Shown: one piece after another, positions 6,401-62,823 of the stretch
Layout: each line of letters begins with the position of its first letter
How positions within the stretch are numbered: position 1 is the stretch's first letter
Assembly: GCA_963741385.1 (NCBI GenBank)
Contig: CAVUHO010000003.1
Coordinates: 134,833 to 198,832, forward strand
DNA: 64,000 nt
Origin: Candidatus Sulfomarinibacteraceae bacterium
GTDB lineage: Bacteria > Acidobacteriota > Thermoanaerobaculia > Thermoanaerobaculales > Sulfomarinibacteraceae
Reading direction: 5' to 3'
Translations under genes and position numbers: made by a program
Notes under the pieces: generated by a model
What the model was told of the DNA's origin: nothing
Seen by the model: the letters and a program-made list of their open reading frames with translations, nothing else
Databases searched by the model: none

Positions 6401-9166
6401 GTCGGTTTCGTTCACAGCTGTTACGGTTGCGGTGGAGCCGATGACGTCGGTGCCGGCGGTCGTCGAGGCAGCCACAGTGAGAGTCACCGTCAATGTCGCG
6501 CTGGCGCCGGCGGCGAGGCTACCGAGGGTCCACGTGGGATCTGCAAACGAACCGCCGCTCGGTGTCACCGAGTCGATGGTGACCCCCGTCGGCAGCGTGA
6601 GGGTCTCTGAGATCGTCAGACCTGAGGCATCGCCCGGTCCCTTGTTGGCGGCGGTCACGGTGTAGACCAGGTTACCGGCACCGGAGCCGGCCATCACCGG
6701 GTCGATCGACTCGGTGGTGGTGAGTTCGATGTCGACCTGGCGTGTCACCGATGTGGCCTCGGTGGCCTCGTTGTTGTCGGTGACGGTCTCCGGCTGGGTG
6801 GTGGCGGTGATTGTGGCCGTGTTGGAGATGACATCGGTGCCGGCTGCCGTGGAGCTCTGCACCGTGAGGACCACGGTGAGGGTTGCGCTGGCGCCGTTGG
6901 CCAGATCACCGACGGTCCAGGTGGACGGAGCTGTCCAAACGGTGCCTGCACTGGGAGTGACCGAGTCCCTTGCCACTCCGGCTGGCAAGGTCAGGACGTT
7001 GCTCACCACGACGCCGGAGGCATCAACGGGACCGTTGTTGGTGGTGGTCACGGTGTAGGTGAGATTGCCTGCTGCGGAGCCGGCGACCACCGGGTCGACG
7101 GAGTCGACGACGGTCACGGCGATGTCGACGATTCTGATGTTGCCGAAAACGAGACCTGTCACGTCGACCCCACTCACAGTCGTGATGTCATGGACCGCGG
7201 GAAGCGTCGTTTGAACGGTGCCCGCCGGTGTGAGTTGGCGAACGAAATACCGTCCACCGCCCACGTTCGAGAAACCGAAAAGGCCTGCGAGGTCGGAGCC
7301 TGTCGAGTCAATTGAAACGTCGTCACCGATCCCGAAGTCCGGTGTGCCGTCGCCACCGTCCCGCCACAACTCGATCGTCACCATCGGAAACGCCGGGTCA
7401 CCGGTTGGGCTGCCGTCTCCGTTGAGGTCTTCGAAGACCAGTCCCGAAATGCTGACGGGTGTGAAGGGCCTGAGACCGGCGTCGATGGAGAGATCTTCGA
7501 TAGTGAAGGTCACATCGGCCTGACCGTCCGCCGGATCGAAGTTGCTGTCGAGTTCGAAGTCGCCGCCCTGTTCCTTGGGCGAAAGCTCGGATTCGGGCGG
7601 AAAACTGACCGTGAGCGTGTAGGAGCCAGGCAGCAGAGCGGGGAAGAGATACCTGCCGTTGACGTCGCTGGTGGTCGAAACACTCACCGACCCGGCGATC
7701 GCGACGGAAACGGCGTGGACACCCGGTTCGCCACCGTCCTGGATGCCGTCACTGTTGGTGTCGCTCCATACGAAGTCCCCAAGGTTGGCGGGAAGGTCTT
7801 CGGCGGCGATGACGCCCGCGGCCACCGTGACGGTTCCGGTGACCACGATTGGCGTACCGGCATTGGTGTTGTCCGCGATCACCGTCGCCGGAACGAACGA
7901 AGCCGAGTTCCCCTGATCCAACTGGACCGTGCTGACGGCCTGATCAATCTGATATGCGGAGGCGCCAGGGGTCTGGACGGTGTTGCCGGAGATGTCGAGG
8001 TCCAACGTGTAGACGCCGTTGTTTGCGTCGGCGTCGATCAGAATGCCCTCGCCAGTCGGGCTGGTGATGGTGTTTCCGGTGAGGACCACCTTCCAGAGAC
8101 CGCCGGAGCCGGTCGACGCGTCCTGTGGTCGCATCCGGATTCCGGCTCCGGAACCGGTGCCTGTGACGGTGTTGGCGTCGATCAGAACGTTGGCGATGAT
8201 GTCTGCGGAGGCCGAACCCCCATCGATGAAGATGCCGTTGTTTCCGGGGGCGGTGATCTGGTTGTTGCGGACGATGACGGACGTGGTCGTGGCGGCGCCC
8301 TCGAGGTCGACGAGGATGGCCTGTGACAGAGGGCTGGTGATCTGGTTGTCTTCAATGGCGATCGATGCGGAGGTGCCGACACTTCCGGTGTCTCCCAGGT
8401 CGACATCGATGGGGCTCCCCGATCCGGCGGCTGCATTGAACGTGTTGTTGATGATCCGACCGAGGATCACCGGCCCTGCCGGGCCGCTCGGCGACTGGAC
8501 GTCGATCTTGATGCCGTCGTCCTGCAGCATCGTAAAGGTGTTGTCCTCTGCGATGAGGTTGATGGACGGTGCGCCGGTGATCTCGATCTCGACCGCGTCC
8601 TGATTATCGGCGGGGGTTTCGAAACTGTTTCCCCGGACCTCGAGGGTGGTGACGGTGGACCCCGATACCGCCATCAGCACGCCAACGCCTCCGTATCCCG
8701 GGCCGAAGGTGTTGTCGAGCACGGTGACGACGCCGTCAATATTGATGAGTGAGAGGACACCGGTGGGAACGCCGGCGTCGGCATCGAGCACAAAACCGCT
8801 GACCGTTATGTTGCCCGCAAAGCCTGTAGCGCGGAACGCCGCACCCATTCCGCCGTCGACGGTGGCGCCCAGCGGGTTGGCTGCACGAATCGTCAGGTCG
8901 CCGACCGTGGGCGTTCCCAACGCGCTGCCCATCAGGCCGAGATCGACGCTCTCGTCGTACGAGCCGTCGTCAACCACGATTTCATCGCCTGGAGAGGCGT
9001 TGTTCACGGCCTCCTGGATCGTTGTGTAATCGTCAGAAACCGAGATCGTTGCGGCCTCTGAAAATGCTGGCAGCACCAGACATACGGCCATGATCGTCAG
9101 CGTCATCGACACACTCCAAATCGGGGGCTGAGGTGTCTTCGCGCATTCGTCGGAGTCGGTCGTCAT
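3449..9166 (-). CDS. Giant secreted surface protein with parallel beta-helix repeats, two SdrD-B/Cna-B-like units, seven DUF11-type repeats and Ig-like plus CBM-like C-terminal modules
   Basis: 1905-aa ORF with signal peptide MTLTIMAVCLVLPAFSEA (alternative start at 9106). It has NNxF/NNQIT beta-helix repeats and GDFVWSDTNSDGIQDGGEPG...NGRYLF...GSYTL. It contains seven units of about 130 aa each, with the core DPV.AGS.AGNL.YTVT..N.GP.DA.GV. The C-terminus is LIFSDGFESGGTTMWSLTTP. Confidence 0.85.
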   Translation of the reverse strand: MTTDSDECAKTPQPPIWSVSMTLTIMAVCLVLPAFSEAATISVSDDYTTIQEAVNNASPGDEIVVDDGSYDESVDLGLMGSALGTPTVGDLTIRAANPLGATVDGGMGAAFRATGFAGNITVSGFVLDADAGVPTGVLSLINIDGVVTVLDNTFGPGYGGVGVLMAVSGSTVTTLEVRGNSFETPADNQDAVEIEITGAPSINLIAEDNTFTMLQDDGIKIDVQSPSGPAGPVILGRIINNTFNAAAGSGSPIDVDLGDTGSVGTSASIAIEDNQITSPLSQAILVDLEGAATTTSVIVRNNQITAPGNNGIFIDGGSASADIIANVLIDANTVTGTGSGAGIRMRPQDASTGSGGLWKVVLTGNTITSPTGEGILIDADANNGVYTLDLDISGNTVQTPGASAYQIDQAVSTVQLDQGNSASFVPATVIADNTNAGTPIVVTGTVTVAAGVIAAEDLPANLGDFVWSDTNSDGIQDGGEPGVHAVSVAIAGSVSVSTTSDVNGRYLFPALLPGSYTLTVSFPPESELSPKEQGGDFELDSNFDPADGQADVTFTIEDLSIDAGLRPFTPVSISGLVFEDLNGDGSPTGDPAFPMVTIELWRDGGDGTPDFGIGDDVSIDSTGSDLAGLFGFSNVGGGRYFVRQLTPAGTVQTTLPAVHDITTVSGVDVTGLVFGNIRIVDIAVTVVDSVDPVVAGSAAGNLTYTVTTTNNGPVDASGVVVSNVLTLPAGVARDSVTPSAGTVWTAPSTWTVGDLANGASATLTVVLTVQSSTAAGTDVISNTATITATTQPETVTDNNEATEATSVTRQVDIELTTTESIDPVMAGSGAGNLVYTVTAANKGPGDASGLTISETLTLPTGVTIDSVTPSGGSFADPTWTLGSLAAGASATLTVTLTVAASTTAGTDVIGSTATVTAVNETDTNAANDTSSVATSVTRNVDIEIAAAESIDPVIAGSGAGNLTYVVTATNIGPGDASGVTASNILTLPAGVAIDSITPSGATTWTDPTWTIGDLVNGASETLTLVLSVQSSAAAGTDVISTTATLTAVNEPETDTDNNSATEATSVTRRVDIELTTSGSIDPVVAGSGAGNLVYTVTATNNGPANATGLTVSEVLTLPAGASADSVVPSGAGSWAGPTWTIGDLASGASETLTVTLTVASSTVAGSDVIGSTATVTALNETDTSTANDTSTETTSVSREVDLEVSTTESIDPVVAGSGAGNLVYTVTATNNGPSDASGVTLSEILTLPEGVTVDSVTPSAGSFADPTWTLGYVAAGASETLTVTLTVDNSAAFGTNVIDSTATITAVNETDTSSANDSSSENTSVTREVDVEVTVAESFDPVVAGSGAGNLTYVVTATNNGPSDASGVTITTALTLPTGVTIDSVTPSGGSFADPTWTLGGLARGDSETLTVVLTVSASTASGTDVVDSTATVTAVNETDTVPANDSASELTSVTREIDLVLDKTGSPNPWSPGATLVYTLTITNQGPSDATGVEVTDTLPASVTLVSTSGCAEDQSGVPTCTLGTLAAGGSKQYTISVTVNPDPPPIITNTASVTATETELDAEDNTDDEETTTDTTPPTVTSLLAEPGAGELEACRTVLSPITSLRVIFSEPVRDPPGDTDSDDVTNPANYLVIGSGPDGDFSTAVCGGPLGDDEVVNLTAVSYDEPTRTATLATGSLPSSQVRLLVCGSTSIRDIAGNPLDGTGDGAAGDDFLRTFRSDPFNNFTNGHFDCPSTGLDGWSVSDPVEIIRDSDDADGSTISGSTQIMQLAANTLFEISQCVKVTPSTNYDIVGRMRLTTTSFISYSRSCEFFSTTLCGAPGTGLGNSINSDLMGGTGGTWIEVSDTMTTTAGASSARCAFRFTTPGGQNFTAGLDDLFFGKGDLIFSDGFESGGTTMWSLTTP
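4400..7125. repeat. Intragenic tandem repeat of about 390 bp x7 (DUF11 units of the giant protein)
   Basis: The plus-strand shadow ORFs recur every 390 bp (5505, 5895, 6285). The protein repeat is 130 aa. Six units are highly similar and the seventh (about 4400-4790) is more diverged. Boundaries are approximate. Confidence 0.75.
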
Positions 9167-40650: not shown

Positions 40651-40820
40651 CGATTTCGGATTTCGGATTTCGGATTTCGGATTTGCGCCCGCCCACCCGG
40701 CAGCCGGGACGGCTGCCCCACAATTCCCCCGGCAGAACAAATTGGTTTGTGGGGCACGCGTCTCGCGTGCCGGGCGGGCGGTCGGGAATTCAAAATTCAG
40801 AATTCAAAATTGAGAATTGA
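40651..40820. repeat. Composite structured intergenic repeat, copy I (GGATTTC heptamer arm, GC-rich double-hairpin core, GAATTCAAAATT-type arm)
   Basis: (GATTTCG)x4.7 at 40651..40685. Core with GGCAGCC-GGGAC-GGCTGCC + CCCACAA ... TTTGTGGGG + CACGCG-TCT-CGCGTG. AT-rich 7-nt-period arm at 40786..40820. Confidence 0.8.
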
Positions 40821-47038: not shown

Positions 47039-47175
47039 ATTTCGGATTTCGGATTTCGGATTTCGGATTTCGGATTGGCCACCCAACCACCCGGCACGCG
47101 GGACGCGTGACCCACAAGGCTTCTGATCCGGTTTGTGGGGCAGCCGTCCCGGCTGCCATTCCGCTGGGTGGATTG
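47038..47175. repeat. Composite structured intergenic repeat, copy II (heptamer arm plus core in inverted orientation, no AT arm)
   Basis: (ATTTCGG)x5 at 47038..47076. The core carries the CACGCG hairpin first and GGCAGCC-GTCCC-GGCTGCC second, i.e. the reverse complement of the copy I core. Confidence 0.8.
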
Positions 47176-48199: not shown

Positions 48200-48300
48200 A
48201 AAATTCTGAATTTTGAATTTTTAATTTTGAATTGCGGACACGCAACCGTTCTCTGGCCGGGTGGCCGTGAATTCAAAATTCATAATTCAAAATTTAAAAC
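48200..48300. repeat. Composite structured intergenic repeat, copy III (inverted AT-rich arms around a short GC core)
   Basis: AAAATTCTGAATTTTGAATTTTTAATTTTGAATTG ... GAATTCAAAATTCATAATTCAAAATTTAAAAC. The arms are mutually inverted. Confidence 0.75.
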
Positions 48301-50828: not shown

Positions 50829-50921
50829 AAATTTCGGATTTCGGATTTCGGATTTCGGATGTGACCCCCACCCACCCGGTGACCCGGATTGTTCGTGAGG
50901 GCGGGCGGGAAATCCGAAATC
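50828..50921. repeat. Composite structured intergenic repeat, copy IV (inverted GGATTTC-type arms)
   Basis: (ATTTCGG)x4 at 50828..50860, a GC-rich core (CCCACCCACCCGG ... GAGGGCGGGCGGG), and GAAATCCGAAATC at 50909..50921. Confidence 0.75.
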
Positions 50922-52170: not shown

Positions 52171-52283
52171 CTCAATTTTGAATTATGAATTATGAATTTT
52201 GAATTCCCATCACACTACCAATCCGCATCGAAGATTGGGGCTGCGTCCGAAATTCAAAATTGAGAATTCAAAATTAAGAATTA
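52171..52283. repeat. Composite structured intergenic repeat, copy V (inverted AT-rich arms)
   Basis: CTCAATTTTGAATTATGAATTATGAATTTTGAATTC ... AAATTCAAAATTGAGAATTCAAAATTAAGAATTA. The arms are mutually inverted around a core of about 43 bp. Confidence 0.75.
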
Positions 52284-53187: not shown

Positions 53188-53981
53188 ACGAGTCCGCGAC
53201 GGTCCTCTTTCACCAGTGCGACGGTGACGGCGAACCGCTGCTGCTGCTCAACGGGATCGCCATGACGACGGCCTCGTGGCAGGCGGTGGCGCGGCCGCTG
53301 GCCAAACGATTCCAGGTCGTCCGCTGCGATTTCCGCGGCCAGTTGATGACCCCTGGCGCCCCGCCGGACGACGTTGCCCAGCACGCCGACGACGTGGCCG
53401 CCCTCCTCGACCACCTCGAGATCGACTCCGTTCACGTGGTGGGCACCTCTTTCGGCGGTGTCGTCGGGACCCTCTTCGCCGCCCGGTATGCCGACCGGAC
53501 CCGTTCGCTGATCACCATCGCGTCGGCCGATGGGTTTGACGACGTCATGGCGGACGAAGTGGTGCGATGGCGGCGGGGGTGTGCCGACTCACTTCGGGGC
53601 GGCGACCGCGGAGTGCTGTCCGACGTTCTCGAACCGGTGGTCTACTCCCCGGGGTGGGTGGCCGCGCACCGTGCAGAGCGTGCGCAGCGGCGTGCCCAGA
53701 TTGCGGCGCTCCCGGATGTGTGGTTCGAGGGATTGATCGGGCTCCTCGACTCGGCCCACTCGCTGCGACTTCGTGAGGAATTGGTTGCAGTTACGTGCCC
53801 GACCATGGTGGTGGCGGCGGCGCTCGACGGCTTCGTGCCGCTCGATCGCGCACGCGGCCTCGCCGCCGCCATCGCCGGCGCACGCTTCGAGATCATTCCC
53901 GAAGCCGGTCACGCCGTGGTGGTGGAGCAACCGCAGCGGATCGTCGAAATCTGCACCGGTTTTCTGGCCGGGTTGACCTGA
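53184..53981 (+). CDS. Alpha/beta hydrolase
   Basis: GTG at 53184 (GTGA overlap). LLLNGIAM, nucleophile elbow GTSFGG, and C-terminal AGHAVVVEQP. Confidence 0.8.
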   Translation: MNESATVLFHQCDGDGEPLLLLNGIAMTTASWQAVARPLAKRFQVVRCDFRGQLMTPGAPPDDVAQHADDVAALLDHLEIDSVHVVGTSFGGVVGTLFAARYADRTRSLITIASADGFDDVMADEVVRWRRGCADSLRGGDRGVLSDVLEPVVYSPGWVAAHRAERAQRRAQIAALPDVWFEGLIGLLDSAHSLRLREELVAVTCPTMVVAAALDGFVPLDRARGLAAAIAGARFEIIPEAGHAVVVEQPQRIVEICTGFLAGLT

Positions 53982-53993
53982 AGCCACGCTCCA

Positions 53994-54551
53994 GATCCCT
54001 CCGCTCGGTCGCTGCGCTCCCTCGGTCGGGATGACAGTGAGAGAGGACGTTCGCCCTTCGGTCCGGAAGTCGCTCTCAAAATGTCATTCCGACCGAGGGA
54101 GCGCCAACGACCCTCCCCAATGTCATTCCGACCGAGGAAGCGCCAACGACCGCTCCTCGTGTCATTCCGACCGAGGGAGCGCCAACGACCGCCCCTATGT
54201 CATTCCGACCGAGGGAGCGCCAACGACCGCCTCTCTTGTCATTCCGACCGAGGGAGCGCCAACGACCCTCCCCTATGTCATTCCGACCGCGGGAGAGCCC
54301 ACGACCCCTTCCCTGTGTCATTCCGACCGACGGAGCGCCAACGACAGCCCCTCTTGTCATTCCGACCGACGGAGCGCCAACGACCGCCTCTCTTGTCATT
54401 CCGACCGACGGAGAGCCAACGACCGCCTCTCTTGTCATTCCGACCGACGGAGAGCCAACGACACCCCTCTTGTCATTCCGACCGACGGAGAGCCAACGAC
54501 ACCCCCCTTGTCATTCCGACCGAGGGAGCGCAGCGACCGAGTGGAGGAATC
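53994..54551. repeat. Tandem array (12 copies, 38-40-bp period) bracketed by inverted 42-bp elements
   Basis: Units GTCATTCCGACCGAGGGAGCGCCAACGACC + 8-10 variable nt start at 54083, 54122, 54161, 54199, 54238, 54277, 54317, 54356, 54395, 54434, 54472 and 54510. 53994..54035 matches the reverse complement of 54510..54551 at 39 of 42 positions. Confidence 0.85.
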
Positions 54552-54687
54552 TCGGCGGATGAGCGAGCATGCTCCCGGGCCCCCTCATGGCAGCCGGGAC
54601 GGCTGCCTCACAAGGCGCCGGCGGCTTTGGAACACGCGTCCCCTGTGGCGCGGCTCCTTTGCCCCCGGAGGGCCGTTCTCTGCAATA

Positions 54688-55785
54688 ATGGCCGGCATGG
54701 TGTGGATCTGGTCCGAGGCGGGAGTGATCGGCGTGGCTGTGACGGCCGGCGCCGCGCTGTGGCACCTCGGACGATTGATGCCGCAACACCTCGATCCCGG
54801 CGTGTGCCTCGGTTGGTTGTTGATTGCCGCCGGGCAGGTGATCGGGACCCCAGCCATTGCGGGGGGACCACACGGGGTTGGTGGCGCGCTGGTCGTGGCC
54901 GGTCTGGTGTTGATCGGCATGTCACTGTCTTCCGCGCCGCACGGCGGGAGTTGGAGACGGGTCGGCGTGGTTCTGGCGGTGGCCTTGCCGCTCGTGATCG
55001 CGGCGGTCGTCCTGCCGACGGTGGCGTGGCGCGGCCTCTGGGGTGCGGCACTGTTGGTTGTCGCGGTGTGGCTCGGGCAACAGTGGGGTGAGCACCGCTC
55101 GCGGACGCTCTTCAGTCTGGGGATCGCGTTGCTGACGCTCGCAGCGACGGGTCTGATGGTCACATCCATCCGCCCGTCTCTCGGGTTGTTGTCGGAGGGA
55201 GTGGTTGGGGCGTTGATCTTCGTCGGGATGGTCGGTGTCGCGGCGGCGACGATTCTCGACCAGGCGACTGCAGAGGTGAGCTCGCTGCGCAGCAAGCTCG
55301 CAGATCTCGAGGAGGACCACGAACACCTGCTCCGACTTTCGGAGGCCGATCCACTCACCGGCTGCCCGACGCGACAGGCGCTGAGGGCGTGGTTCGAGCG
55401 GTGGGACGGCGGCGAGCCGGTGTCGGTGGTGTTGATCGATGTGGACAACCTCAAACGCATCAACGAGCGGCACGGCAGCGGAGCCGGCGACGAGGCCTTG
55501 CGCCTGGTGGCGGGCGTGTTGATGGGATCGATCCGGCCGGGTGATCTGGTCGTGCGCTGGGGTGGCGACGAGTTCGTGGTGGTGCTTCGTGGTGCCGACC
55601 ACGAAGCCGCAAAACGAAGGTTCACGGGGCTCATCGATACCCTTCAGGAATCGACCGGCGCCTTTCCCTACGAAGAGACGTTGCGGGTCGACTGGGGTGT
55701 CTCGTCGTGCTCGTTACCGTCGGACATCTCGCGTGCCCTGGCCGAGGCGGACGAGCGCATGTTCGCCATGAAGCGGCGGCGCTGA
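54688..55785 (+). CDS. Membrane-anchored diguanylate cyclase (GGDEF with RxxD I-site)
   Basis: ATG at 54688 (or 54697) in frame within ORF 54031..55785. About six hydrophobic segments, a coiled-coil linker and a GGDEF domain (DPLTGCPTRQAL...VVLIDVDNLKRIN...RPGDLVVRWGGDEFVVV). Confidence 0.8.
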   Translation: MAGMVWIWSEAGVIGVAVTAGAALWHLGRLMPQHLDPGVCLGWLLIAAGQVIGTPAIAGGPHGVGGALVVAGLVLIGMSLSSAPHGGSWRRVGVVLAVALPLVIAAVVLPTVAWRGLWGAALLVVAVWLGQQWGEHRSRTLFSLGIALLTLAATGLMVTSIRPSLGLLSEGVVGALIFVGMVGVAAATILDQATAEVSSLRSKLADLEEDHEHLLRLSEADPLTGCPTRQALRAWFERWDGGEPVSVVLIDVDNLKRINERHGSGAGDEALRLVAGVLMGSIRPGDLVVRWGGDEFVVVLRGADHEAAKRRFTGLIDTLQESTGAFPYEETLRVDWGVSSCSLPSDISRALAEADERMFAMKRRR

Positions 55786-55814
55786 GACCGCAGGCCGAAT
55801 CGCCGCGATTGCCT

Positions 55815-56009
55815 TTAACTTTTTGCCGGCGTCCGACGGGTCGAGAATCCGAACGGCAGATAGGCCGGGCACCACGAGATGAACGCCGTCGCCAGCGGGA
55901 TCAGACCGATGAGCCCGAACCAATTTTTGTAGTAGTAACCGGCGGCCAGGATGGCGACGCCGAGGACGCCCCGGATCACGCGGTCGGCGCTTCCCATGTT
56001 CTTTTTCAT
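55815..56009 (-). CDS. DUF2892 (YgaP-like) small membrane protein
   Basis: 64-aa ORF MKKNMGSADRVIRGVLGVAILAAGYY...GLIPLATAFISWCPAY. It shows the characteristic R..R...G and CP.Y pattern. Confidence 0.7.
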   Translation of the reverse strand: MKKNMGSADRVIRGVLGVAILAAGYYYKNWFGLIGLIPLATAFISWCPAYLPFGFSTRRTPAKS

Positions 56010-56251
56010 TTTCTTTCTCCTTTGGTAGCAGGTTTACCGGAAGAACCTGGTATGTGCAACACCCGCCGCTCACGGTCTATTCGCTGTCGCGGGCCCGGTG
56101 CGCCTGGGGTGAACTCTCCCTCGACGTGTCGCCTGGACGCGACGGGTCGAGATGAACCGAGGGGGGTCTGCCGGTGGCCCTCCTCACGTTGGGATCGTTC
56201 TTCAATCACGCCGGCGAATGAGAATCATCAGTTGCTTGTTACGATCATTCG

Positions 56252-56842
56252 GTGACTGGATCAAAGTCGGGAGCTGCCGCGGTGGTCACGGCCGACCGCA
56301 CGCTGGTCAATCGCTGCCTCAAGGGTGATGAGGAGGCGTGGGTGGAGCTGTGGACCCGCTACGGTCCGGTCGTCAAGGCGGTGGCGCGGCGGGTGGGCTG
56401 CGACACGGAGGAGGCGAGAGATGTCCTGCAGCGTGTGGCTCTGGTAGCGCTTCAGGGTCTGGACGGTCTGCGCGATCCGGAGAAACTCGGAGGGTGGCTT
56501 GCCGGAACGGCCCGCTACCAGGCGTATGAGGTCATCCGTCGCCGTCGCCCCACCGAACAGTTGTTTCCGGGATCCGCAGTGCACGATCCATCCCCGGAGG
56601 AATCCATACAGCGAGACCGCGATGTGGTGATTCTGCGGCGCGCGCTGTTGGATCTCGACGAACGCTGCCGCAGGCTGATTCAAAGCCTCGATCTCGAGGA
56701 CCCACCGGTCAGTTATCGCGACGTGGCAGAGGCCGAGGGTCTGACGCCGTCGTCCGTCGGGCCGATCCGGCGGCGGTGTTTGAACCGCTTGAGAAAAATC
56801 GTCGAAAAGCTGTCTTATCGCCGGCCCGGGGGACACACATAG
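56252..56842 (+). CDS. ECF-type (sigma-70 family group 4) sigma factor
   Basis: 196-aa ORF (GTG start). Region 2 (EEAWVELWTRYGPVVKAVARRV...ARDVLQRVALVAL...GWLAGTARYQAYEVIRRRR). Region 4 HTH (VSYRDVAEAEGLTPSSVGPIRRRCLNRLRKIV). Confidence 0.85.
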   Translation: MTGSKSGAAAVVTADRTLVNRCLKGDEEAWVELWTRYGPVVKAVARRVGCDTEEARDVLQRVALVALQGLDGLRDPEKLGGWLAGTARYQAYEVIRRRRPTEQLFPGSAVHDPSPEESIQRDRDVVILRRALLDLDERCRRLIQSLDLEDPPVSYRDVAEAEGLTPSSVGPIRRRCLNRLRKIVEKLSYRRPGGHT

Positions 56843-57457
56843 ATGAGGGATGAGATGAGTCACCTGGAATTCGATCGCCTTTTCGACCTGATGGGAGGAT
56901 CCGGCACCGCCGAAGAAGCCTCCCACCTGGCGGATTGCGATGTCTGCCGTCGTCAACTCGAGCTGTGGCGCACCCGGGTGGACGATCTCCGGGAGATCGA
57001 ATCCAGCGCGGTGGATATGGCCGAAATCCACAACCTGCGCGTGCTCTTTCGGGAGTTCGGGCCATCGCCCGCGGACCGGAGTTGGGTCGCGCGGCTCATC
57101 CGCAGTTCGCAACCGGTTGCCGCTGAGGCTGTTCGCGGCGGTCTGGCAGCCACCCTCGAAGCTTACGATGCCGGTCCCTATCAGATTGTCCTGCAGGTGA
57201 GTCCGTCGGAAGCGGAGGGTCGGTTCGACCTCCAGGGACAGGTGGCGGGCGACGGAAGCCGCGTCCCGGTAAGCACCCAAGTGGTCCTCACATCTGAACG
57301 TGGATTCGCCGACCGGGCGACGGTTGATGCCTTCGGAGAGTTCCGCATCGCCGGGGTGCCCGAGGGACCGTGTCGGTTGGTGTGGTACGGCGGCGGTGAG
57401 CGGATCGATCTCGATAGCCTGCGAATCGGGGAGTGCGATGACGACGACGGGAAATGA
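56843..57457 (+). CDS. Soluble anti-sigma-like protein (zf-HC2 motif) with a C-terminal beta-sandwich (carboxypeptidase-regulatory-like) segment
   Basis: The ATG immediately follows the sigma stop codon. It has an H-x3-C-x2-C motif (HLADCDVC) and no hydrophobic TM segment. C-terminal pattern DAFGEFRIAGVPEGPCRLV. Confidence 0.65.
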   Translation: MRDEMSHLEFDRLFDLMGGSGTAEEASHLADCDVCRRQLELWRTRVDDLREIESSAVDMAEIHNLRVLFREFGPSPADRSWVARLIRSSQPVAAEAVRGGLAATLEAYDAGPYQIVLQVSPSEAEGRFDLQGQVAGDGSRVPVSTQVVLTSERGFADRATVDAFGEFRIAGVPEGPCRLVWYGGGERIDLDSLRIGECDDDDGK

Positions 57458-60164
57458 GCCGTTGCCGCCGGAAATTCTTCGCACTCTGGCCGACGAGGGC
57501 GCGATCCGCGCGGGCGAGCACCTCGTGAGGTATGCCGAAAACATGGCGCGTTCGCGCCCCGGCGAGGCCCGGCGCTGGGGAGCGAGAATGGCCGGTTCGC
57601 ACTATGACGACACGATCGTCACCGGTTGCGCTCACTGGGCGGCAGGAGTCGCGATGTACCTTGCGGGAGATGTGGCTGCCGCAGAACCGGCTCTCCTCGA
57701 TGCCGCCCGGATGCTCAACGGGACCGACGACGGGAGTCTCGCCGACCGCGCAAGACTGTTGCTGATTGATCTCCACGGTGAGAAGTTCGAACTGGGTCGT
57801 GCGCGGCGGCTGGCTGAAAAACTGCATCGTAACTTCAGCGCGCGGGGCGACAGCGCTCGAGCGGCTGCGGTTCTCGCCAATCTCGCCGGCGCTGAGGACG
57901 CCGCCGACCGGGTGTCGCGCGCCCGTGCCCTGTGGCGCCGGGCGCGCCGCGGCCTCGAGGCGGGCTCTCTGCGGAGGTTGCTGACCGACGCCAATCTCGC
58001 CAATGTTGCGGCCCTCGAAGGCCACCTCCGCGATGCTGCCGACGGACTGGCAGCGGTGGCCGGCGAAGCGCGGCGGATGGACATGGACGGTCTTGCGGTC
58101 AAGGCCGAACTCAACCTCGCCGAGGTGGAGTTCTCTGCCGGAGATGTGGACTCGGCCTTCGCCCGTTGGGCACGGGTGCTGACCGAGGCCCACGATTCAG
58201 GCAACCGTGTCGCTGAAGTTGCCGCTGTGATCGATCTTGCAGCCGCCGAGGCCGGCGTCGGCGACATCAGTGGGGCGCGGAGGCGGCTCGAGGGTGCCCT
58301 CACCGGAGCGCGGGAACTCGGTCTCGATGTTGAGGCCGCCCGCGCTGCCCGTCTGCTCGCGACGCTCGAGGCGGCGGACGGCGTTGCGGGCTCGCTCGAG
58401 CGTGCGCAAGGCGATCTTCGCGGACCTGCATGGTCCGTGCAAAGGGATCTCCTGACGGTGGAGGTGGCGCAGCTCGACCCGAGCTGCGACCCCGGCCGGT
58501 TGTCCCGCGCGGCGCGCCGTCTGATCCGTGGCGGCCACCTGCAACGCGGCCGCCTCGGCCTTGCATGGGCCGCATCGCGGTGGCTCGATCGCGGCCAGAC
58601 GTCGCGGGCCCGCGGTTTGGCTCGCGAGGTTCTCGCAGCCCGCGGCCTTTCGCCGTGGATCCGGATGATTGCGAATCACGTGCTCGGCCGCCTCGGCGGG
58701 CCGCAGCAGATTCGTTACCTGCTGGCGGCGGCGTGGAACGCCGATAAGGTCCACGGCCGGCTCGCGGCCGCGGCTGATCGCCAGGCATTTCTGTCGAGAC
58801 GTGGAGAGGTCTACCTGGATCTCATGGGTGCGCTCATCGAACGCAACCGTCCGTCCGATCGGCGCCGGGCTCTAGGTATTGCGGACCGGGTTCGCACAGG
58901 GTGGCTTCTCGATGAATTGGCTCGCCGATCAGACCGCGGCGATGACGACGAAGTGCGGCGGTGGCAGGATCTCCGCTGTCGGCTGTCGGCTCTGCTGCAC
59001 GATGTCGAAGGCGCGGGCGAACCGCGTGTCCGCCGGTCGGGGCTCAAGCTCCACGGCGAGATCAGATCCCTGGAGCGGGATGTGCGGAGGGCCGAAACTG
59101 AACTCGCCCGCCGCTGGCCGGTGGCGTGGAATGGTGTCGAATTCTCGGCGGCCGATGAGCTCTTGAAGGTGCTCCCGGAGCGCGATTGCTTTGTCGAATA
59201 TCTGCTCGACCGGGAGAACCTCGTCGTGTTCCGGGTTCTGGGTGGTTCTCTGACGGTCGTGGTGGTGCCTGGCGGATCACTCGAACTTGCCGGCCTCCTG
59301 GCATCGGTGCAGTTTCATCTCGATGCCGCTACCTGGCTGGGCGACCGGTGGGGCGATGCCCAGAATGCCGCGCTTGACGACAGGCTGCGCCGGCTGGGAG
59401 AGATTCTGCTTGAACATGTGCCCCTGGATGGCGTTGACCGGTTGTGGATCGCACCGCACGCACGTCTTTTTCACGTGCCGTGGCCGGCTCTTCGCCACCC
59501 CCGGGGCGAGCGCCTGCTGGATGTGGTGCCGTTCACCCTGGTACCCGGTGCACGGGCCGCTGCCATGTTGCTCGGTGGAGCCGTTCGCCGTCCCAGATCG
59601 GCGGCCGTCGGTGGGGCGGTGGCGGCGAATTTGCCGCTGGTGGAAAAGGAGATGCGTGAGCTCTCCGAGATTGCCGGCGGCGAGAGCGTTGCAATTTCGA
59701 CGACGCGGGAGGGGTTTCTCGGTTTGATGCGGGAACACGAACTCGTCCACCTCGCCGGTCACGCGCTGTTTCTTGACGGCCTTCCATTCGCGTCGGGTCT
59801 GCGGATGAGCGACGGTTATGTGACGGTCCACGATCTCGCGGCCACCAGAATGGCGGCGCGCTTCGTGTCGTTCGGTGTGTGTTCGGGGCTGCGGCTAGGG
59901 CGTGATTCCGGCGACCGCTACGCGGGGTTCGTATTGGCGTTGATGAGCGGCGGCGTGCGGACCGTGGTCGGACCGGTCGGCCCGGTTCGCGATGACGTCG
60001 CGTATACGTTTGATATGGCTCTCCACCGCCGGCTGGCTGAGACCGGAGACCCGCAGTCAGCGTTCTTCGGCGCTGTCGCCGCGGTCCGTGAGCTCGATCC
60101 GCGGCCCGCCACCTGGGGGAGCTTCCACATGTGGGGCGATCCGCGCGCGTGGGGGATTGCATGA
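57438..60164 (+). CDS. TPR-like repeat plus CHAT (caspase-like) protease domain protein
   Basis: ATG at 57438 overlaps the anti-sigma 3' end. About 600 aa of Ala/Leu/Arg-rich helical repeats. C-terminal CHAT with LVHLAGHA (His) and FVSFGVCSG (Cys) dyad contexts. Confidence 0.8.
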   Translation: MTTTGNEPLPPEILRTLADEGAIRAGEHLVRYAENMARSRPGEARRWGARMAGSHYDDTIVTGCAHWAAGVAMYLAGDVAAAEPALLDAARMLNGTDDGSLADRARLLLIDLHGEKFELGRARRLAEKLHRNFSARGDSARAAAVLANLAGAEDAADRVSRARALWRRARRGLEAGSLRRLLTDANLANVAALEGHLRDAADGLAAVAGEARRMDMDGLAVKAELNLAEVEFSAGDVDSAFARWARVLTEAHDSGNRVAEVAAVIDLAAAEAGVGDISGARRRLEGALTGARELGLDVEAARAARLLATLEAADGVAGSLERAQGDLRGPAWSVQRDLLTVEVAQLDPSCDPGRLSRAARRLIRGGHLQRGRLGLAWAASRWLDRGQTSRARGLAREVLAARGLSPWIRMIANHVLGRLGGPQQIRYLLAAAWNADKVHGRLAAAADRQAFLSRRGEVYLDLMGALIERNRPSDRRRALGIADRVRTGWLLDELARRSDRGDDDEVRRWQDLRCRLSALLHDVEGAGEPRVRRSGLKLHGEIRSLERDVRRAETELARRWPVAWNGVEFSAADELLKVLPERDCFVEYLLDRENLVVFRVLGGSLTVVVVPGGSLELAGLLASVQFHLDAATWLGDRWGDAQNAALDDRLRRLGEILLEHVPLDGVDRLWIAPHARLFHVPWPALRHPRGERLLDVVPFTLVPGARAAAMLLGGAVRRPRSAAVGGAVAANLPLVEKEMRELSEIAGGESVAISTTREGFLGLMREHELVHLAGHALFLDGLPFASGLRMSDGYVTVHDLAATRMAARFVSFGVCSGLRLGRDSGDRYAGFVLALMSGGVRTVVGPVGPVRDDVAYTFDMALHRRLAETGDPQSAFFGAVAAVRELDPRPATWGSFHMWGDPRAWGIA

Positions 60165-62242
60165 GTCGGCGCCAAAGACTCGGGGCGGTGTTCGCGGCGA
60201 TAGCCGTACTGTTGGTCGTGGTCGGTGATCGGGCGGCCGCGGCAGAGCCCTCACTCGCTGACCGGGGCCGGACATCCACCATCCGCGGAATCGTGAAATC
60301 CGTCGATCCGCCGTTCGGTTTCGTGCTGGAAGACGGCACGGTCGTCGAGCTTGAGGCGGGCGCGCAGTGGGACGGCCTTCGCGGCGTCGCGGACCTGGTA
60401 CCGGGCGACAGCATCACGGTCATCGGGACATTGTTCGAAATCGGTGGACGTCCCGCGGTCAAGGCCGGTGGGGTGAGGGTCGCATCGCCGTCCGGTCGTG
60501 TTGTTCCCATCGGTTCGCCGGTGTGCATGCCGCCGCGTTTGACCCATTCCGGTGGCAGGAAGTCGTCCCGCGCCGCGCCCGCCAACCTGACGACGGCCAA
60601 GGGCGAGTTCGAGCTCCAGAAGGACGGTGATGGCGGAGGCGGCGAAAGTGACGACGACGGTGTGGATTTCGAGTCGACCGGTATCGTGACCGAGATCGTG
60701 CCGCCCGACAGTTTTGCCTTCAGCGATCAGCGCATCTATCGGGTGGACGGTCTGACTGAATTCGACGAGCCCATCGTCTCGTACTCGGGTCTTGCAGTGG
60801 GGCAGTACCTCGAGGTCAAGGCAGTGTACGAGGGTGGCAGTGTCTACCGCGCGGTCAAGATCGAGTTCGAAGGGGACGACGACGGGGGCCAGGGCTACCG
60901 GACTGTTGAAGGGACCGTCGCAGCCGTTTCGGCCGTGGAGATGACCCTGACGGATGACACCGTGCTGCTCTTCACAGCCACGACGCAGTTCAACGGCGAC
61001 ACCGACCGGCGCGAGGACCTTCAGGCGGGGTGGGAGGTCGAGGCCACGGCTCTCTTCAACGCATCCGCCCAGTTGTTGGCGCTCACGGTGCGAGCGGAGA
61101 ACCCGGCGCCGTCGACGACCGCGGACCAGGAGTACGAGCCGCACGAGGCCGTTCTCGTGCTGGTGGAAGGAGCCGACCCCCAGACCGTGGCATCGAGACA
61201 CGGCGGCGAAGTTTCGGGCCAGGTCTCGACCCTCGGTGCGCTCTTCAGATGGCAACGGGAAATTGACGATGATCTGCTGGCGCAGCTGGCTGCGGATCCG
61301 GACGTTTTGGCGGTGGAACCGAACTTCCTGTTCCGGGACCCCGAGTCGACCCGCCGGAGATTCGTGATCGTCGACCGGTCGCCTACCAGCGCCGAGTACA
61401 CCGGTCAGCAGGCTGCAATCAAGCACGGGGTCGCGAATGCCCACACCATCAGCCAGGGCGGCGGAACCGTGGTCGCCATCATGGACAACGGAGTGGACTA
61501 CTGCCACCCGCTGCTCCAGGGACACCTCCTGGCGGGCGGGATGGACCTCATCGATGGCGATCTGTTGCCGTGGGAAACAGCCGACGGAATCGACCAGGAC
61601 GGTGATGGCGAGACCGACGAGGCCGCCGGACACGGCACTTTTGTCGCCTCCGTGGTGGCGTTGGCGGCACCCGGGGCGCGGATCCTGCCGTACCGGGTCC
61701 TCGACGACGACGGCGGTGGTACCGCCTTCAACCTGGCGTTGGCCCTCGCCGATGCCATCGAGCGCGGTGTCGACGTCATCAACCTTTCGCTCGCCTACCG
61801 CGAACGGTCGGTAGTGGTGGACCTCCTGCTCGAGGAGGCCGCGAGACGGAAAATCGTGGTGGTGGCCGCTGCTGGCAACGACGCGTCCGCGACGCTGCCG
61901 TTCCCGGCCATCGACAGCCACGTGTTGGCGGTAACTGCTCTTCGGGCGGACGGTGGCGGGCTCGCGGACTTCGCCAACCGCGGCACCACGGTGGTCCTTG
62001 CGGCGATCGGAGAGGACGTCTATGGCGCGCTTTTCGGAGGCGAGTACGGCACTTCCTCGGGCACCTCGATGGCGGCGCCGTTCGCCGCAGCCGGAGCGGC
62101 CCTGGTCAAGAGCCTCGATCCCGGGGTCCCGCCGGACATCGTCCGCCAGCTGCTCCTCCAGTCCGGCGTGGTGATCGCTGACGGCGAGTGGAGCGGTTCT
62201 TCGCTCGATCTCGGTCGTGCCGCAGTCGCCGCTCAGCCCTGA
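60161..62242 (+). CDS. Secreted or anchored subtilisin-like S8 peptidase with three N-terminal OB-like (DUF5666-like) repeats and an I9-like propeptide
   Basis: ATGA overlap with the CHAT gene. Signal/anchor LGAVFAAIAVLLVVVG. Three repeats of about 70 aa (GIVKSVDPP.GFVLEDGTVV..., GIVTEIVPPDSFAFSDQRIY..., EGTVAAVSAVEMTLTDDTVL...). S8 triad contexts VAIMDNGVD, GHGTFVAS and GTSMAAP. Confidence 0.85.
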   Translation: MSRRQRLGAVFAAIAVLLVVVGDRAAAAEPSLADRGRTSTIRGIVKSVDPPFGFVLEDGTVVELEAGAQWDGLRGVADLVPGDSITVIGTLFEIGGRPAVKAGGVRVASPSGRVVPIGSPVCMPPRLTHSGGRKSSRAAPANLTTAKGEFELQKDGDGGGGESDDDGVDFESTGIVTEIVPPDSFAFSDQRIYRVDGLTEFDEPIVSYSGLAVGQYLEVKAVYEGGSVYRAVKIEFEGDDDGGQGYRTVEGTVAAVSAVEMTLTDDTVLLFTATTQFNGDTDRREDLQAGWEVEATALFNASAQLLALTVRAENPAPSTTADQEYEPHEAVLVLVEGADPQTVASRHGGEVSGQVSTLGALFRWQREIDDDLLAQLAADPDVLAVEPNFLFRDPESTRRRFVIVDRSPTSAEYTGQQAAIKHGVANAHTISQGGGTVVAIMDNGVDYCHPLLQGHLLAGGMDLIDGDLLPWETADGIDQDGDGETDEAAGHGTFVASVVALAAPGARILPYRVLDDDGGGTAFNLALALADAIERGVDVINLSLAYRERSVVVDLLLEEAARRKIVVVAAAGNDASATLPFPAIDSHVLAVTALRADGGGLADFANRGTTVVLAAIGEDVYGALFGGEYGTSSGTSMAAPFAAAGAALVKSLDPGVPPDIVRQLLLQSGVVIADGEWSGSSLDLGRAAVAAQP

Positions 62243-62256
62243 ACCCGTTTTGTCGA

Positions 62257-62823
62257 TCAGATCACGACAACGTCCTGGGAGACGATCCAACAGCCGATGA
62301 CGATCAGGAGGATTCCTCCGACGACCGCCATCCGCGAACCGAATCGGTTGCCCAGGGCCTTTCCCCCGAGGGTGCCGACCAGGGTCATGGCGCCCGCCGT
62401 CAGACCGATGATCGCGGCCGGCAGCCAGATCTCGACCCCGAGGGCGGCAAAACTGAGGCCGATCGCCAGCGCGTCGATGCTGGTGGCGATGGACAGCACC
62501 ACCAACGACCACCCGCGGGTGGGATCGGAGCGCCGGGTGTCGCGGCCGTCGCCCCGCAGCGCCTCGAGGATCATGCGACTGCCGACGATGGTCAGCAGGG
62601 CGAATGCCAGCCAGTGGTCCCAACTCTCGATCAACGGCCGGACCGATCTGCCGGCGATCCAGCCGATGATCGGCATCAGAGCCTGAAACAGCCCGAAGTG
62701 CCACGCCAGGCGAAAGGTCTGGCGCCGTGAGGTCCCTCCCAGAGCCACGCTGACTGCGATGGACACAGCAAATGCGTCCATCGCCAGTCCGATGGCGATT
62801 CCGAACAGTACGATCAGATCCAC
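62257..62823 (-). CDS. mntP: Manganese efflux pump MntP
   Basis: DUF204 repeats (GLAMDAFAVSIA and SIDALAIGLSF). The GTG at 62823 gives 188 aa, matching E. coli MntP in length and N-terminal alignment. The longest ORF extends to the ATG at 62898. Confidence 0.8.
   Translation of the reverse strand: MDLIVLFGIAIGLAMDAFAVSIAVSVALGGTSRRQTFRLAWHFGLFQALMPIIGWIAGRSVRPLIESWDHWLAFALLTIVGSRMILEALRGDGRDTRRSDPTRGWSLVVLSIATSIDALAIGLSFAALGVEIWLPAAIIGLTAGAMTLVGTLGGKALGNRFGSRMAVVGGILLIVIGCWIVSQDVVVI

Follow-up and report, generated by a model that had tools for sequence, protein, structure and literature searches.

What controls a sigma factor of the extracytoplasmic function (ECF) type whose operon also encodes two proteases, one predicted to be cytoplasmic and the other predicted to be exported? 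The question is raised by a locus at positions 56252-62242 of a 64,000-nucleotide stretch of DNA from a Candidatus Sulfomarinibacteraceae bacterium (hereafter the window, meaning that whole stretch), in which four translationally coupled open reading frames (ORFs) on the + strand encode a sigma factor, a small soluble protein (ORF2), a protein combining tetratricopeptide repeats with a caspase-like CHAT domain (TPR-CHAT) and an S8 peptidase. Here, we describe this operon and its relatives, and tentatively rank first the reading that the CHAT protease cleaves ORF2, an anti-sigma factor, and so frees the sigma factor, the whole forming an autoregulated module of the ECF54 type, a reading to which we give somewhat less than an even chance. 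A preliminary description of the region had arrived at the same circuit logic, which survives here as the best-ranked proposal; the novelty that it claimed was overstated, since the ECF54 group and the Myxococcus xanthus protein DdvA, both considered in the last section, precede it.

A coupled and conserved four-gene operon

The four genes and their products are as follows.

56252..56842, + strand: ECF (group 4) sigma factor; maximal ORF from GTG 56252, 196 aa; likely start GTG 56282, 186 aa.
56843..57457, + strand: ORF2, soluble candidate anti-sigma factor of 204 aa (200 aa from ATG 56855), with a four-helix N-terminus, a disordered linker and a C-terminal beta-sandwich.
57438..60164, + strand: TPR-CHAT protein of 908 aa, predicted to be cytoplasmic, with ~24 TPR-like helices (residues 11-560) and a CHAT domain (583-908).
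60161..62242, + strand: pre-pro subtilase of 693 aa, predicted to be exported, with a signal peptide (~1-28), DUF5666 repeats, an I9-like propeptide (assigned by eye) and an S8 domain (433-668).

The sigma stop codon (TAG, 56840-56842) is followed without a gap by the ATG of ORF2 (56843), the CHAT gene begins at an ATG (57438) inside ORF2 and overlaps its 3' end by 20 nt (ORF2 stop, 57455-57457), and the CHAT and S8 genes overlap by an ATGA (60161-60164). Every ORF and junction of the coupled operon set out in the preliminary description (TAGATG, the CHAT-in-ORF2 overlap and ATGA) can be read in the sequence, and searches with hidden Markov models (HMMs) matched all four of the domains Sigma70_r2, CHAT (PF12770), Peptidase_S8 and DUF5666, which it had proposed checking in this way.

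Scanning species-representative genomes for the CHAT protein family identified 31 loci, all of them in Acidobacteriota metagenome-assembled genomes (Ca. Sulfomarinibacteraceae, Thermoanaerobaculia and Holophagae) and the closest 96% identical, so that the expected conservation of the quartet in other genomes is borne out. The order sigma, ORF2, CHAT, S8 is kept wherever the contig is long enough (29 loci by tblastn, together with L022 and L023 by HMM), and the HMM search recovered ORF2 in two loci missed by tblastn. Apparent sigma-ORF2 fusions in L002 and L022 proved to be artefacts, the ORF list and the HMM search both giving separate genes. As the flanking genes vary between distant loci, the quartet behaves as a self-contained module. 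It is a real, well-conserved operon, and its gene content, coupling, conservation and motifs are established here along with the predicted folds and localisation of its products.

ORF2 as a candidate anti-sigma factor

Two features of ORF2 bear on its possible function.

56861..56947, + strand: putative zinc-ligand motif H3-x20-H24-x3-C28-x2-C31 (200-aa numbering), from sequence alignment.
57134..57136, + strand: codon of Arg94 in the linker motif [GA][VL]R[GS], a candidate protease site or docking residue.

The AlphaFold2 (AF2) model of ORF2 (predicted local distance difference test, pLDDT, 76.5) places helices at residues 6-13, 19-27, 29-50 and 55-68 ahead of an eight-strand beta-sandwich at 100-191, and the protein has no hydrophobic or transmembrane segment. 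The H-x3-C-x2-C element falls at the junction of helices 2 and 3 (19-27 and 29-50), giving, from sequence and model together, the arrangement of a zinc-binding anti-sigma (ZAS) domain, namely this motif within an N-terminal helical domain. In the Acidobacteriota family the N-terminus reads M-x-H ... H-x3-C-x2-C and all the ligands are invariant. When 1.84 billion cluster representatives were searched with a profile, 983 relatives emerged, many of ~200 aa and matching end to end. In an alignment of 113 full-length sequences (112 representatives of different 50%-identity clusters plus the window protein), H24, C28 and C31 are found in 109-110 and H3 in 75, the ligands being lost from the actinobacterial L037 protein and from P0268 and P0359. 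Arg94 is present in 113 of 113, and within the region joining the two domains it occupies the one stretch modelled with low confidence (pLDDT <50 at 89-92 and 95-98). The window protein also has the Glu that would make a separase-like ExxR site at this position; we rejected such a site as a family feature because the Glu is unconserved.

Database matches point the same way at a distance. The C-terminal part of the window protein matches CarboxypepD_reg below threshold (23.4 bits against a gathering score of 32.3), as do, weakly, 18 of 18 close and 22 of 45 distant relatives, while Pfam zf-HC2 (PF13490) matches eight of the 45 distant full-length homologues (best 3.1e-8) and so gives ORF2 a link, through transitive homology, to the anti-sigma domains of the ZAS class. 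NCBIfam holds no specific family for ORF2 or for the CHAT protein. Together with the position of the gene directly after that of the sigma factor, the four N-terminal helices and the H-x3-C-x2-C motif, these homologues argue that ORF2, the 'carboxypeptidase-regulatory' neighbour, is likely to be a ZAS-type anti-sigma candidate. The preliminary description had called it a soluble zf-HC2-like protein, of which the motif, the lack of a transmembrane segment and the beta-sandwich stand; the family name itself finds no Pfam match in the window protein, a point weighed below.

A predicted cytoplasmic TPR-CHAT protease

The third protein matches CHAT (PF12770) at 1.7e-22 (80.7 bits; cut-off 24) and, over its repeat region, the TPRs of Pins/LGN (E 1.6e-13). 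Its AF2 model (pLDDT 81.9) has ~24 TPR-like helices followed by a CHAT fold, and the best Protein Data Bank (PDB) matches found with Foldseek are human separase, the craspase TPR-CHAT protein Csx29 and DdvA (E 3e-13 to 4e-10); model and TPR profile thus describe the separase/craspase type of architecture, an N-terminal TPR superhelix with a C-terminal CHAT domain. As it has neither a signal peptide nor a transmembrane segment, the protein is predicted to be cytoplasmic. Its family members are ~900-918 aa long and 43-96% identical to it, apart from one outlier at 32%. The catalytic residues, assigned by alignment and with catalysis predicted, are encoded as follows.

59760..59882, + strand: catalytic dyad codons, His775 at 59760-59762 and Cys815 at 59880-59882.

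The His and Cys contexts reported previously (LVHLAGHA and GVCSG) are both present, and the loss of the dyad on alignment, which would have told against the earlier reading, is not seen: His771, His775 and Cys815 are shared by all of 19 family members spanning 32-79% identity, and the dyad is also invariant in the distant orthologues of L071, L072, L068, L034, L036 and L037. The protein has, then, the CHAT domain and conserved His-Cys dyad of a clan CD caspase-like protease, and invariance down to ~25-30% identity argues for selection on catalysis.

This invariance bears on one alternative, a non-proteolytic partner switch in which the TPR-CHAT protein would bind ORF2, through its beta-sandwich or the Arg motif, and titrate it away from the sigma factor, with the CHAT domain serving as a scaffold or acting on other substrates. 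TPR domains do mediate protein binding, and the CHAT site of DdvA is resting and incomplete, its dyad mutants behaving like the wild type in unstimulated cells (PMC11506125). Against this, retention of both His and Cys in all orthologues examined argues that catalysis has been kept, and we see only a slim chance that the switch works without cleavage.

Persistence of the sigma-ORF2-CHAT triad

The gene contexts of distant ORF2 relatives (22-29% identity) and of actinobacterial loci are listed below.

L071: sigma, ORF2, TPR-CHAT (959 aa), S8.
L072: sigma, TPR-CHAT (966 aa), ORF2.
L068: CHAT then ORF2; contig too short on the sigma side.
L066/L067 (one locus): sigma, helix-turn-helix (HTH) gene, ORF2 and a TPR protein truncated where the contig stops.
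L069, L070 and one further contig: sigma, then ORF2, then a truncated gene.
L073: ORF2 and a truncated gene, on a 1.3-kb contig that has no sigma gene.
L034 (Acidimicrobiales) and L036, both actinobacterial: ORF2-like, S8, sigma, CHAT.
L037 (Nocardioides sp. SYSU DS0651, a cultured carrier), actinobacterial: sigma, ORF2-like without zinc ligands, CHAT.

A CHAT or TPR gene adjoins ORF2 in four of the four distant loci with enough flanking sequence (L066/L067 counted once), and a sigma gene is present in four of five, the five being those four loci and L070. Alignment with the CHAT profile built from Acidobacteriota runs end to end over the proteins of L071, L072 and L034, and the N-terminal fragments of L066 and L070 align with it too. 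The triad recurs in Actinobacteria and in distant metagenomic lineages, and is kept through three gene orders (ORF2-S8-sigma-CHAT, sigma-ORF2-CHAT and sigma-CHAT-ORF2); such persistence through shuffling is typical of physically interacting partners. In L066 (937-1539) and L067 (781-1383), the gene inserted between the sigma and ORF2-like genes is of the transposase-like HTH_28/29/32 type.

The sigma factor and its candidate promoter

ECF (group 4) sigma factors are defined by having only sigma regions 2 and 4 in ~170-220 aa, and the first product of the operon, of 186-196 aa, belongs among them; it matches Sigma70_r2 at 9.8e-10 and TIGR02937 (sigma70-ECF) at 1.1e-17 over residues 28-182 (64.1 bits; cut-off 42.9). 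Gene callers begin it at GTG 56282 (186 aa) and begin ORF2 at the second ATG, 56855 (200 aa). The choice of the gene callers, a GGAG 8 nt upstream and a conserved promoter ending at 56241 make GTG 56282 the more likely start of the sigma gene. Across ~0.9 Mb of loci, phmmer matched the window sigma factor to CHAT-linked sigma factors only, at 199-371 bits in Acidobacteriota and 81-102 bits in Actinobacteria, and to no other ECF, and a homologue search returned orthologues only, annotated as Acidobacteria/Sulfomarinibacteraceae where annotated at all.

The sigma sequence also speaks to a second alternative, in which the proteases would act on the sigma factor itself and ORF2 would be an adaptor or substrate mimic. 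Proteolytic control of this kind is what has been proposed for ECF54 (PMC8999054), and a type III-B system offers a case in which PCaspase cuts a putative sigma factor (10.1101/2023.06.23.546230). The window sigma factor is, however, of ordinary length, its residues before 15 are unconserved, and it carries no extension or conserved linker that would hint at processing, whereas ORF2 resembles an anti-sigma factor in its position, size, helical N-terminus and ZAS motif and has homologues that match zf-HC2; the S8 peptidase is, in addition, predicted to be exported. Direct cleavage of the sigma factor is accordingly a reading that we regard as very unlikely, and ORF2 stays the preferred substrate.

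The search for an ECF-type promoter upstream of 56252, suggested previously, yielded a candidate.

56213..56241, + strand: candidate ECF-type autoregulated promoter, GGCGAAT (GAAT -35 element at 56216-56219), N18, GTTA (-10 element at 56238-56241).

In 21 of 30 related loci, the 200 nt upstream of the sigma gene contain a GAAT-N17-19-GTTA/GATA/GTTG pattern, which 3.6% of random 240-nt windows from the same sequences also show; the statistic is post hoc, given that the pattern was derived from the sequences on which it was scored. GAAT-N18-GTTA has the form of ECF -35 and -10 elements and suggests that the operon is autoregulated. A scan of 55700-62500 for sigma-70-type promoters and terminators was uninformative and found no such promoter, and an Rfam scan of 53900-56400 gave no match.

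The promoter and the zinc ligands together bring in a third alternative, that ORF2 is a redox- or zinc-sensing ZAS protein of the RsrA type, which would release the sigma factor by itself on thiol or oxidative stress and leave the TPR-CHAT and S8 proteins as mere outputs of the regulon. The SigR-type promoter consensus is GGAAT-N18-GTT, which GAAT-N18-GTT resembles; the H/H/C/C set is invariant in the Acidobacteriota family; and if the four genes form one autoregulated transcription unit, the CHAT and S8 proteins would be outputs in any case. Yet the ligand-less relatives in L037, P0268 and P0359 keep both a sigma gene beside ORF2 and the invariant Arg, L037 keeps the TPR-CHAT gene as well, and the gene association is thus independent of the zinc site. 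The three genes also stay together despite the shuffling of their order, and many ZAS proteins are not redox sensors. We consider a self-sufficient thiol switch unlikely, and continue with cleavage of ORF2 by the CHAT protease.

A predicted exported subtilase

The last product matches Peptidase_S8 (PF00082) at 9.5e-39 (133.9 bits) and DUF5666 at 1.2e-14, and has the subtilase triad in D442 (MDNGVD), H491 (GHGTF) and S636 (GTSMAAP). A basic, hydrophobic N-terminus (residues 4-29) ending in AxA is kept in 25 related loci, in many of which the gene also overlaps the CHAT gene by ATGA, and on the strength of this conserved signal sequence the protein is taken to be exported. The earlier account of an exported subtilase with three OB-like repeats is upheld in its first part; Pfam gives two DUF5666 stretches, and the third repeat is visible by eye only. 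Assignment as a mycosin, the best NCBIfam match, was rejected, the score of 128.7 bits falling far below the cut-off of 278.75. The S8 gene is missing from the triads of L037 and L072 and is, in that sense, dispensable; we treat it as an output or accessory outside the cytoplasmic switch. In L002 (12754-14695) it is split into a 400-aa DUF5666 part and a separate short Peptidase_S8 fragment, by decay or assembly error.

A proposed protease-gated switch

The proposed cycle would begin with the sigma factor held by ORF2 through the N-terminal four-helix domain. The TPR superhelix would read a signal, probably a protein or peptide, upon which the His775/Cys815 dyad would align and the protease would cut ORF2, our best guess for the site being the Arg94 linker between the sigma-binding domain and the beta-sandwich. 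Cleavage would destabilise ORF2 and free the sigma factor, which would transcribe its own operon from GAAT-N18-GTTA and so raise the levels of all four products, with the secreted S8 peptidase as an extracytoplasmic output. Sigma binding by ORF2, its cleavage by the CHAT protein, the cleavage site, the signal and the S8 role are all steps that we infer. What points to them is the tight coupling of the genes, the persistence of the triad, the features of ORF2, the invariant dyad, the predicted fold type, Arg94 and the promoter, and by analogy the precedents of Csx29, CalpL and DdvA. Metacaspases, clostripain and gingipain R, all clan CD enzymes, cut after Arg. So does separase (PMC11506125).

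Several observations weigh against this scheme. The window ORF2 and 17 close relatives do not match Pfam zf-HC2 even at E<=10; a PDB profile search with ORF2 gave two marginal, irrelevant matches only, with no anti-sigma factor and no Csx30 chain among them; and Foldseek returned only generic immunoglobulin-like/FN3 folds (E>=7e-3) and no anti-sigma domain, being uninformative on the helical domain. Craspases cut after Met or Leu, not Arg (PMC11506125), and Arg94 could be a structural or docking residue rather than a P1 site. Because an exported S8 peptidase could not reach a cytoplasmic anti-sigma factor, the switch leaves the conservation of the S8 gene unexplained. Finally, the promoter count carries its post hoc character with it, and Casas-Pastor et al. 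place ECF54 among the groups without an anti-sigma factor (PMC7826278).

Genomic surroundings

Protease-controlled sigma factors of comparable design are known from CRISPR systems. A spaced-repeat search found no CRISPR array in the window, and no cas gene of cas7-11 size is present among the window ORFs scanned, the smaller ORFs having been left unscanned. The ten largest other ORFs encode an adhesin, two TrkH proteins, an S10 peptidase, a histidine kinase, a PA-domain protein, a cytochrome/NrfD protein, an RNB-domain ribonuclease (RNase II/R type), a TonB receptor and an AMP-ligase. The ORFs of the final ~1.7 kb were listed as well, and neither the window nor the related loci inspected showed type III-E genes. 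On an 11.3 kb metagenomic contig with an identical ORF2, the downstream genes encode MntP, a cation efflux protein and a major facilitator superfamily/acyltransferase protein, and none is a cas gene. The components of a type III-E system, Cas7-11 (gRAMP), an array and Csx30/Csx31, thus have no counterpart in the form of an array or a Cas-like large ORF in the window or of cas neighbours in the related loci inspected, in keeping with the earlier description of a protease-sigma circuit without CRISPR.

A fourth alternative sees the locus as an anti-phage or conflict module of the abortive infection kind, in which the TPR-CHAT protein would sense an invader protein, the CHAT and/or S8 proteins would be toxic effectors and the sigma pair would control expression only. 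The characterised bacterial CHAT/sigma links, namely craspase, SAVED-CHAT and DdvA, are all defence-related (PMC10028731, PMC11506125, 10.1101/2023.06.23.546230), and variable flanks imply that the module moves as a unit. PADLOC, however, matched no defence system save for a generic subtilase; neither the scanned proteins of the window nor the loci inspected, where the neighbours are housekeeping genes, showed cas, cyclic oligonucleotide-based antiphage signalling system (CBASS) or mobile-element genes; and a peptidase predicted to be secreted is not an intracellular toxin. A defence role is one to which we assign little probability, which leaves proteolytic sigma release as the reading we favour.

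Other features of the window were noted in passing. A 39-bp tandem repeat of ~12 copies (TGTCATTCCGACCGAGGGAGCGCCAACGACC followed by ~8 variable nt) at 54016-54538 fills the gap just upstream of a gene for a membrane GGDEF protein (start called at 54559), with an inverted partial copy at 54016-54037; it has no Rfam match and, having no spacers, is not CRISPR-like. Between the GGDEF gene and the sigma operon, a 64-aa YgaP-like transmembrane gene is called on the opposite strand of a related contig, equivalent to window 55815-56009 (- strand). Several intergenic gaps of this 64% GC sequence hold AT-rich heptamer arrays (GATTTCG/ATTTCGG, AATTTTG and AATTATG) and 14-mers (GAATTCAAAATTCA).

40652-40684, 40786-40818, 47039-47076, 48202-48233, 50831-50860, 52174-52205 and 52251-52282: AT-rich heptamer/14-mer arrays.

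Most of these arrays lie shortly upstream of + strand ORFs starting at 40845 (the RNB-domain ribonuclease), 47133, 50953 and 52297, and may amount to a regulatory or repeat element common to these sites. At 3449-9166 (- strand), a 1905-aa surface-type protein has seven DUF11 repeats, SdrD_B and a beta-helix domain, and its gene contains a 387-bp tandem repeat (x5.4).

Implications

A broader possibility is that the locus represents a class of separase-like cytoplasmic TPR-CHAT proteases that is widespread and independent of CRISPR (the ORF2 family spans ~1000 clusters at 50% identity). Their dedicated substrate would be a two-domain anti-sigma factor, with a ZAS domain joined to a beta-sandwich by the invariant-Arg linker, cut at the Arg to release an ECF sigma factor; we think this possible and on balance lean against it. 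Few ECF groups are still listed with no known regulator, the ECF54 type among them, and bacterial TPR-CHAT proteins that stand alone have no known substrates. Were the broader proposal true, it would provide the first defined substrate and function for such a protease and identify the 'missing' anti-sigma factor of ECF54-type sigma factors, and it would suggest that the CRISPR craspase/Csx30/sigma and DdvA arrangements derive from an older housekeeping signalling module. Should the cleavage model hold, CHAT-gated sigma release would be a general mode of bacterial signalling and not a CRISPR speciality, and would offer an orthogonal protease-controlled transcription switch; should it fail, the locus would be one more uncharacterised ECF operon. 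The locus and its relatives make a compact, testable four-gene system, with an invariant dyad, an invariant linker Arg and a conserved promoter from which a reporter could be made.

Comparison with known systems

One close parallel is craspase (Cas7-11/Csx29, Csx30 and CASP-sigma), in which Csx29 cleaves Csx30 and so lifts the inhibition of CASP-sigma (PMC10028731). A cytoplasmic TPR-CHAT protein, a soluble inhibitor of an ECF-like sigma factor and release by cleavage would all have counterparts in the window, and Foldseek matches the window CHAT protein to Csx29 chains at E 3e-12 to 3e-11. In contrast to craspase, the window has no Cas7-11, CRISPR RNA or array, so target RNA bound to Cas7-11 cannot be the signal; ORF2 has no sequence relation to Csx30 detectable by PDB profile search, and the N-terminal repeat region of the window protein is ~560 residues.

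A second CRISPR-linked relay joins CalpL, CalpT and CalpS, described as a type III CRISPR SAVED-Lon protease, an anti-sigma factor and a sigma factor of ECF-like type (10.1101/2023.06.23.546230, 10.1101/2024.05.08.593097); according to the summary given in the former, CalpL cleaves CalpT and releases a subcomplex of a CalpT fragment with CalpS. The proposed window version would share a signal-activated cytoplasmic protease and a soluble anti-sigma factor on an ECF-like sigma factor. CalpL is, however, a Lon-like serine protease with a SAVED sensor for cyclic tetra-adenylate (cA4) and depends on CRISPR, whereas the window protein is a predicted clan CD cysteine protease with TPRs. SAVED-CHAT, PCaspase and PCc-sigma form another protease-sigma link (10.1101/2023.06.23.546230).

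DdvA joins the same parts in one polypeptide, a transmembrane ZAS anti-sigma factor fused to a periplasmic TPR-CHAT region, with DdvS as its ECF partner in a characterised pair (PMC11506125). Both systems pair an ECF sigma factor and a zinc-binding anti-sigma domain, a putative one in the window, with a separase/craspase-type TPR-CHAT protein bearing a His/Cys dyad, and the window CHAT model matches the DdvA structures 8rw5 and 8rot (E ~2-4e-10, Foldseek). DdvA, however, has a transmembrane helix, and its dimeric periplasmic TPR-CHAT part feeds RseP intramembrane proteolysis (PMC11506125), whereas the window has a separate anti-sigma candidate and TPR-CHAT protein, both predicted to be cytoplasmic and neither with a transmembrane segment or signal peptide, an extra beta-sandwich domain and an S8 gene, with no CBASS/CRISPR regulon nearby.

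With the classical ZAS proteins (RsrA, ChrR and RslA; PF13490), ORF2 shares H-x3-C-x2-C at the helix 2/3 junction, an upstream His and a gene placed directly after that of the ECF sigma factor. ChrR consists of an anti-sigma domain and a C-terminal beta-rich sensor domain, a two-domain layout to which that of ORF2 is similar. ORF2 differs in the spacing to its first ligand (x20 against ~x23-26), its lack of a significant Pfam or PDB sequence match, its invariant Arg linker and its CarboxypepD_reg-like tail.

Our literature search found no paper on a stand-alone cytoplasmic TPR-CHAT protein paired with a soluble anti-sigma factor. The concept of a protease-controlled ECF sigma factor beside CHAT is nonetheless not new, and the gene association of ECF54 has already been described: a 2022 review, which cites Huang et al. 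2015 and Casas-Pastor et al. 2021, records that proteolytic regulation was proposed from the conserved presence nearby of proteins with carboxypeptidase(-regulatory), subtilase and CHAT domains (PMC8999054). That neighbourhood is found here too, with CarboxypepD_reg (weak), CHAT and Peptidase_S8 in one operon across the 31 loci, and the actinobacterial loci L034, L036 and L037, whose ECFs are the only non-acidobacterial ones matched by the window sigma factor, carry the same components. The differences are that ECF54 was defined in Actinobacteria and the window locus belongs to Acidobacteriota (Sulfomarinibacteraceae/Thermoanaerobaculia), that the window gene order is unlike that of L034 and L036, and that the CarboxypepD_reg protein of the window has a full ZAS motif, whereas ECF54 is listed without an anti-sigma factor. 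The window locus is, on this sequence evidence, most likely an acidobacterial member of a CHAT/subtilase-linked ECF family, ECF54 or a close neighbour of it, to which we add the ZAS-type reading of the CarboxypepD_reg neighbour together with its invariant Arg linker, a candidate promoter and the wide spread of the triad.

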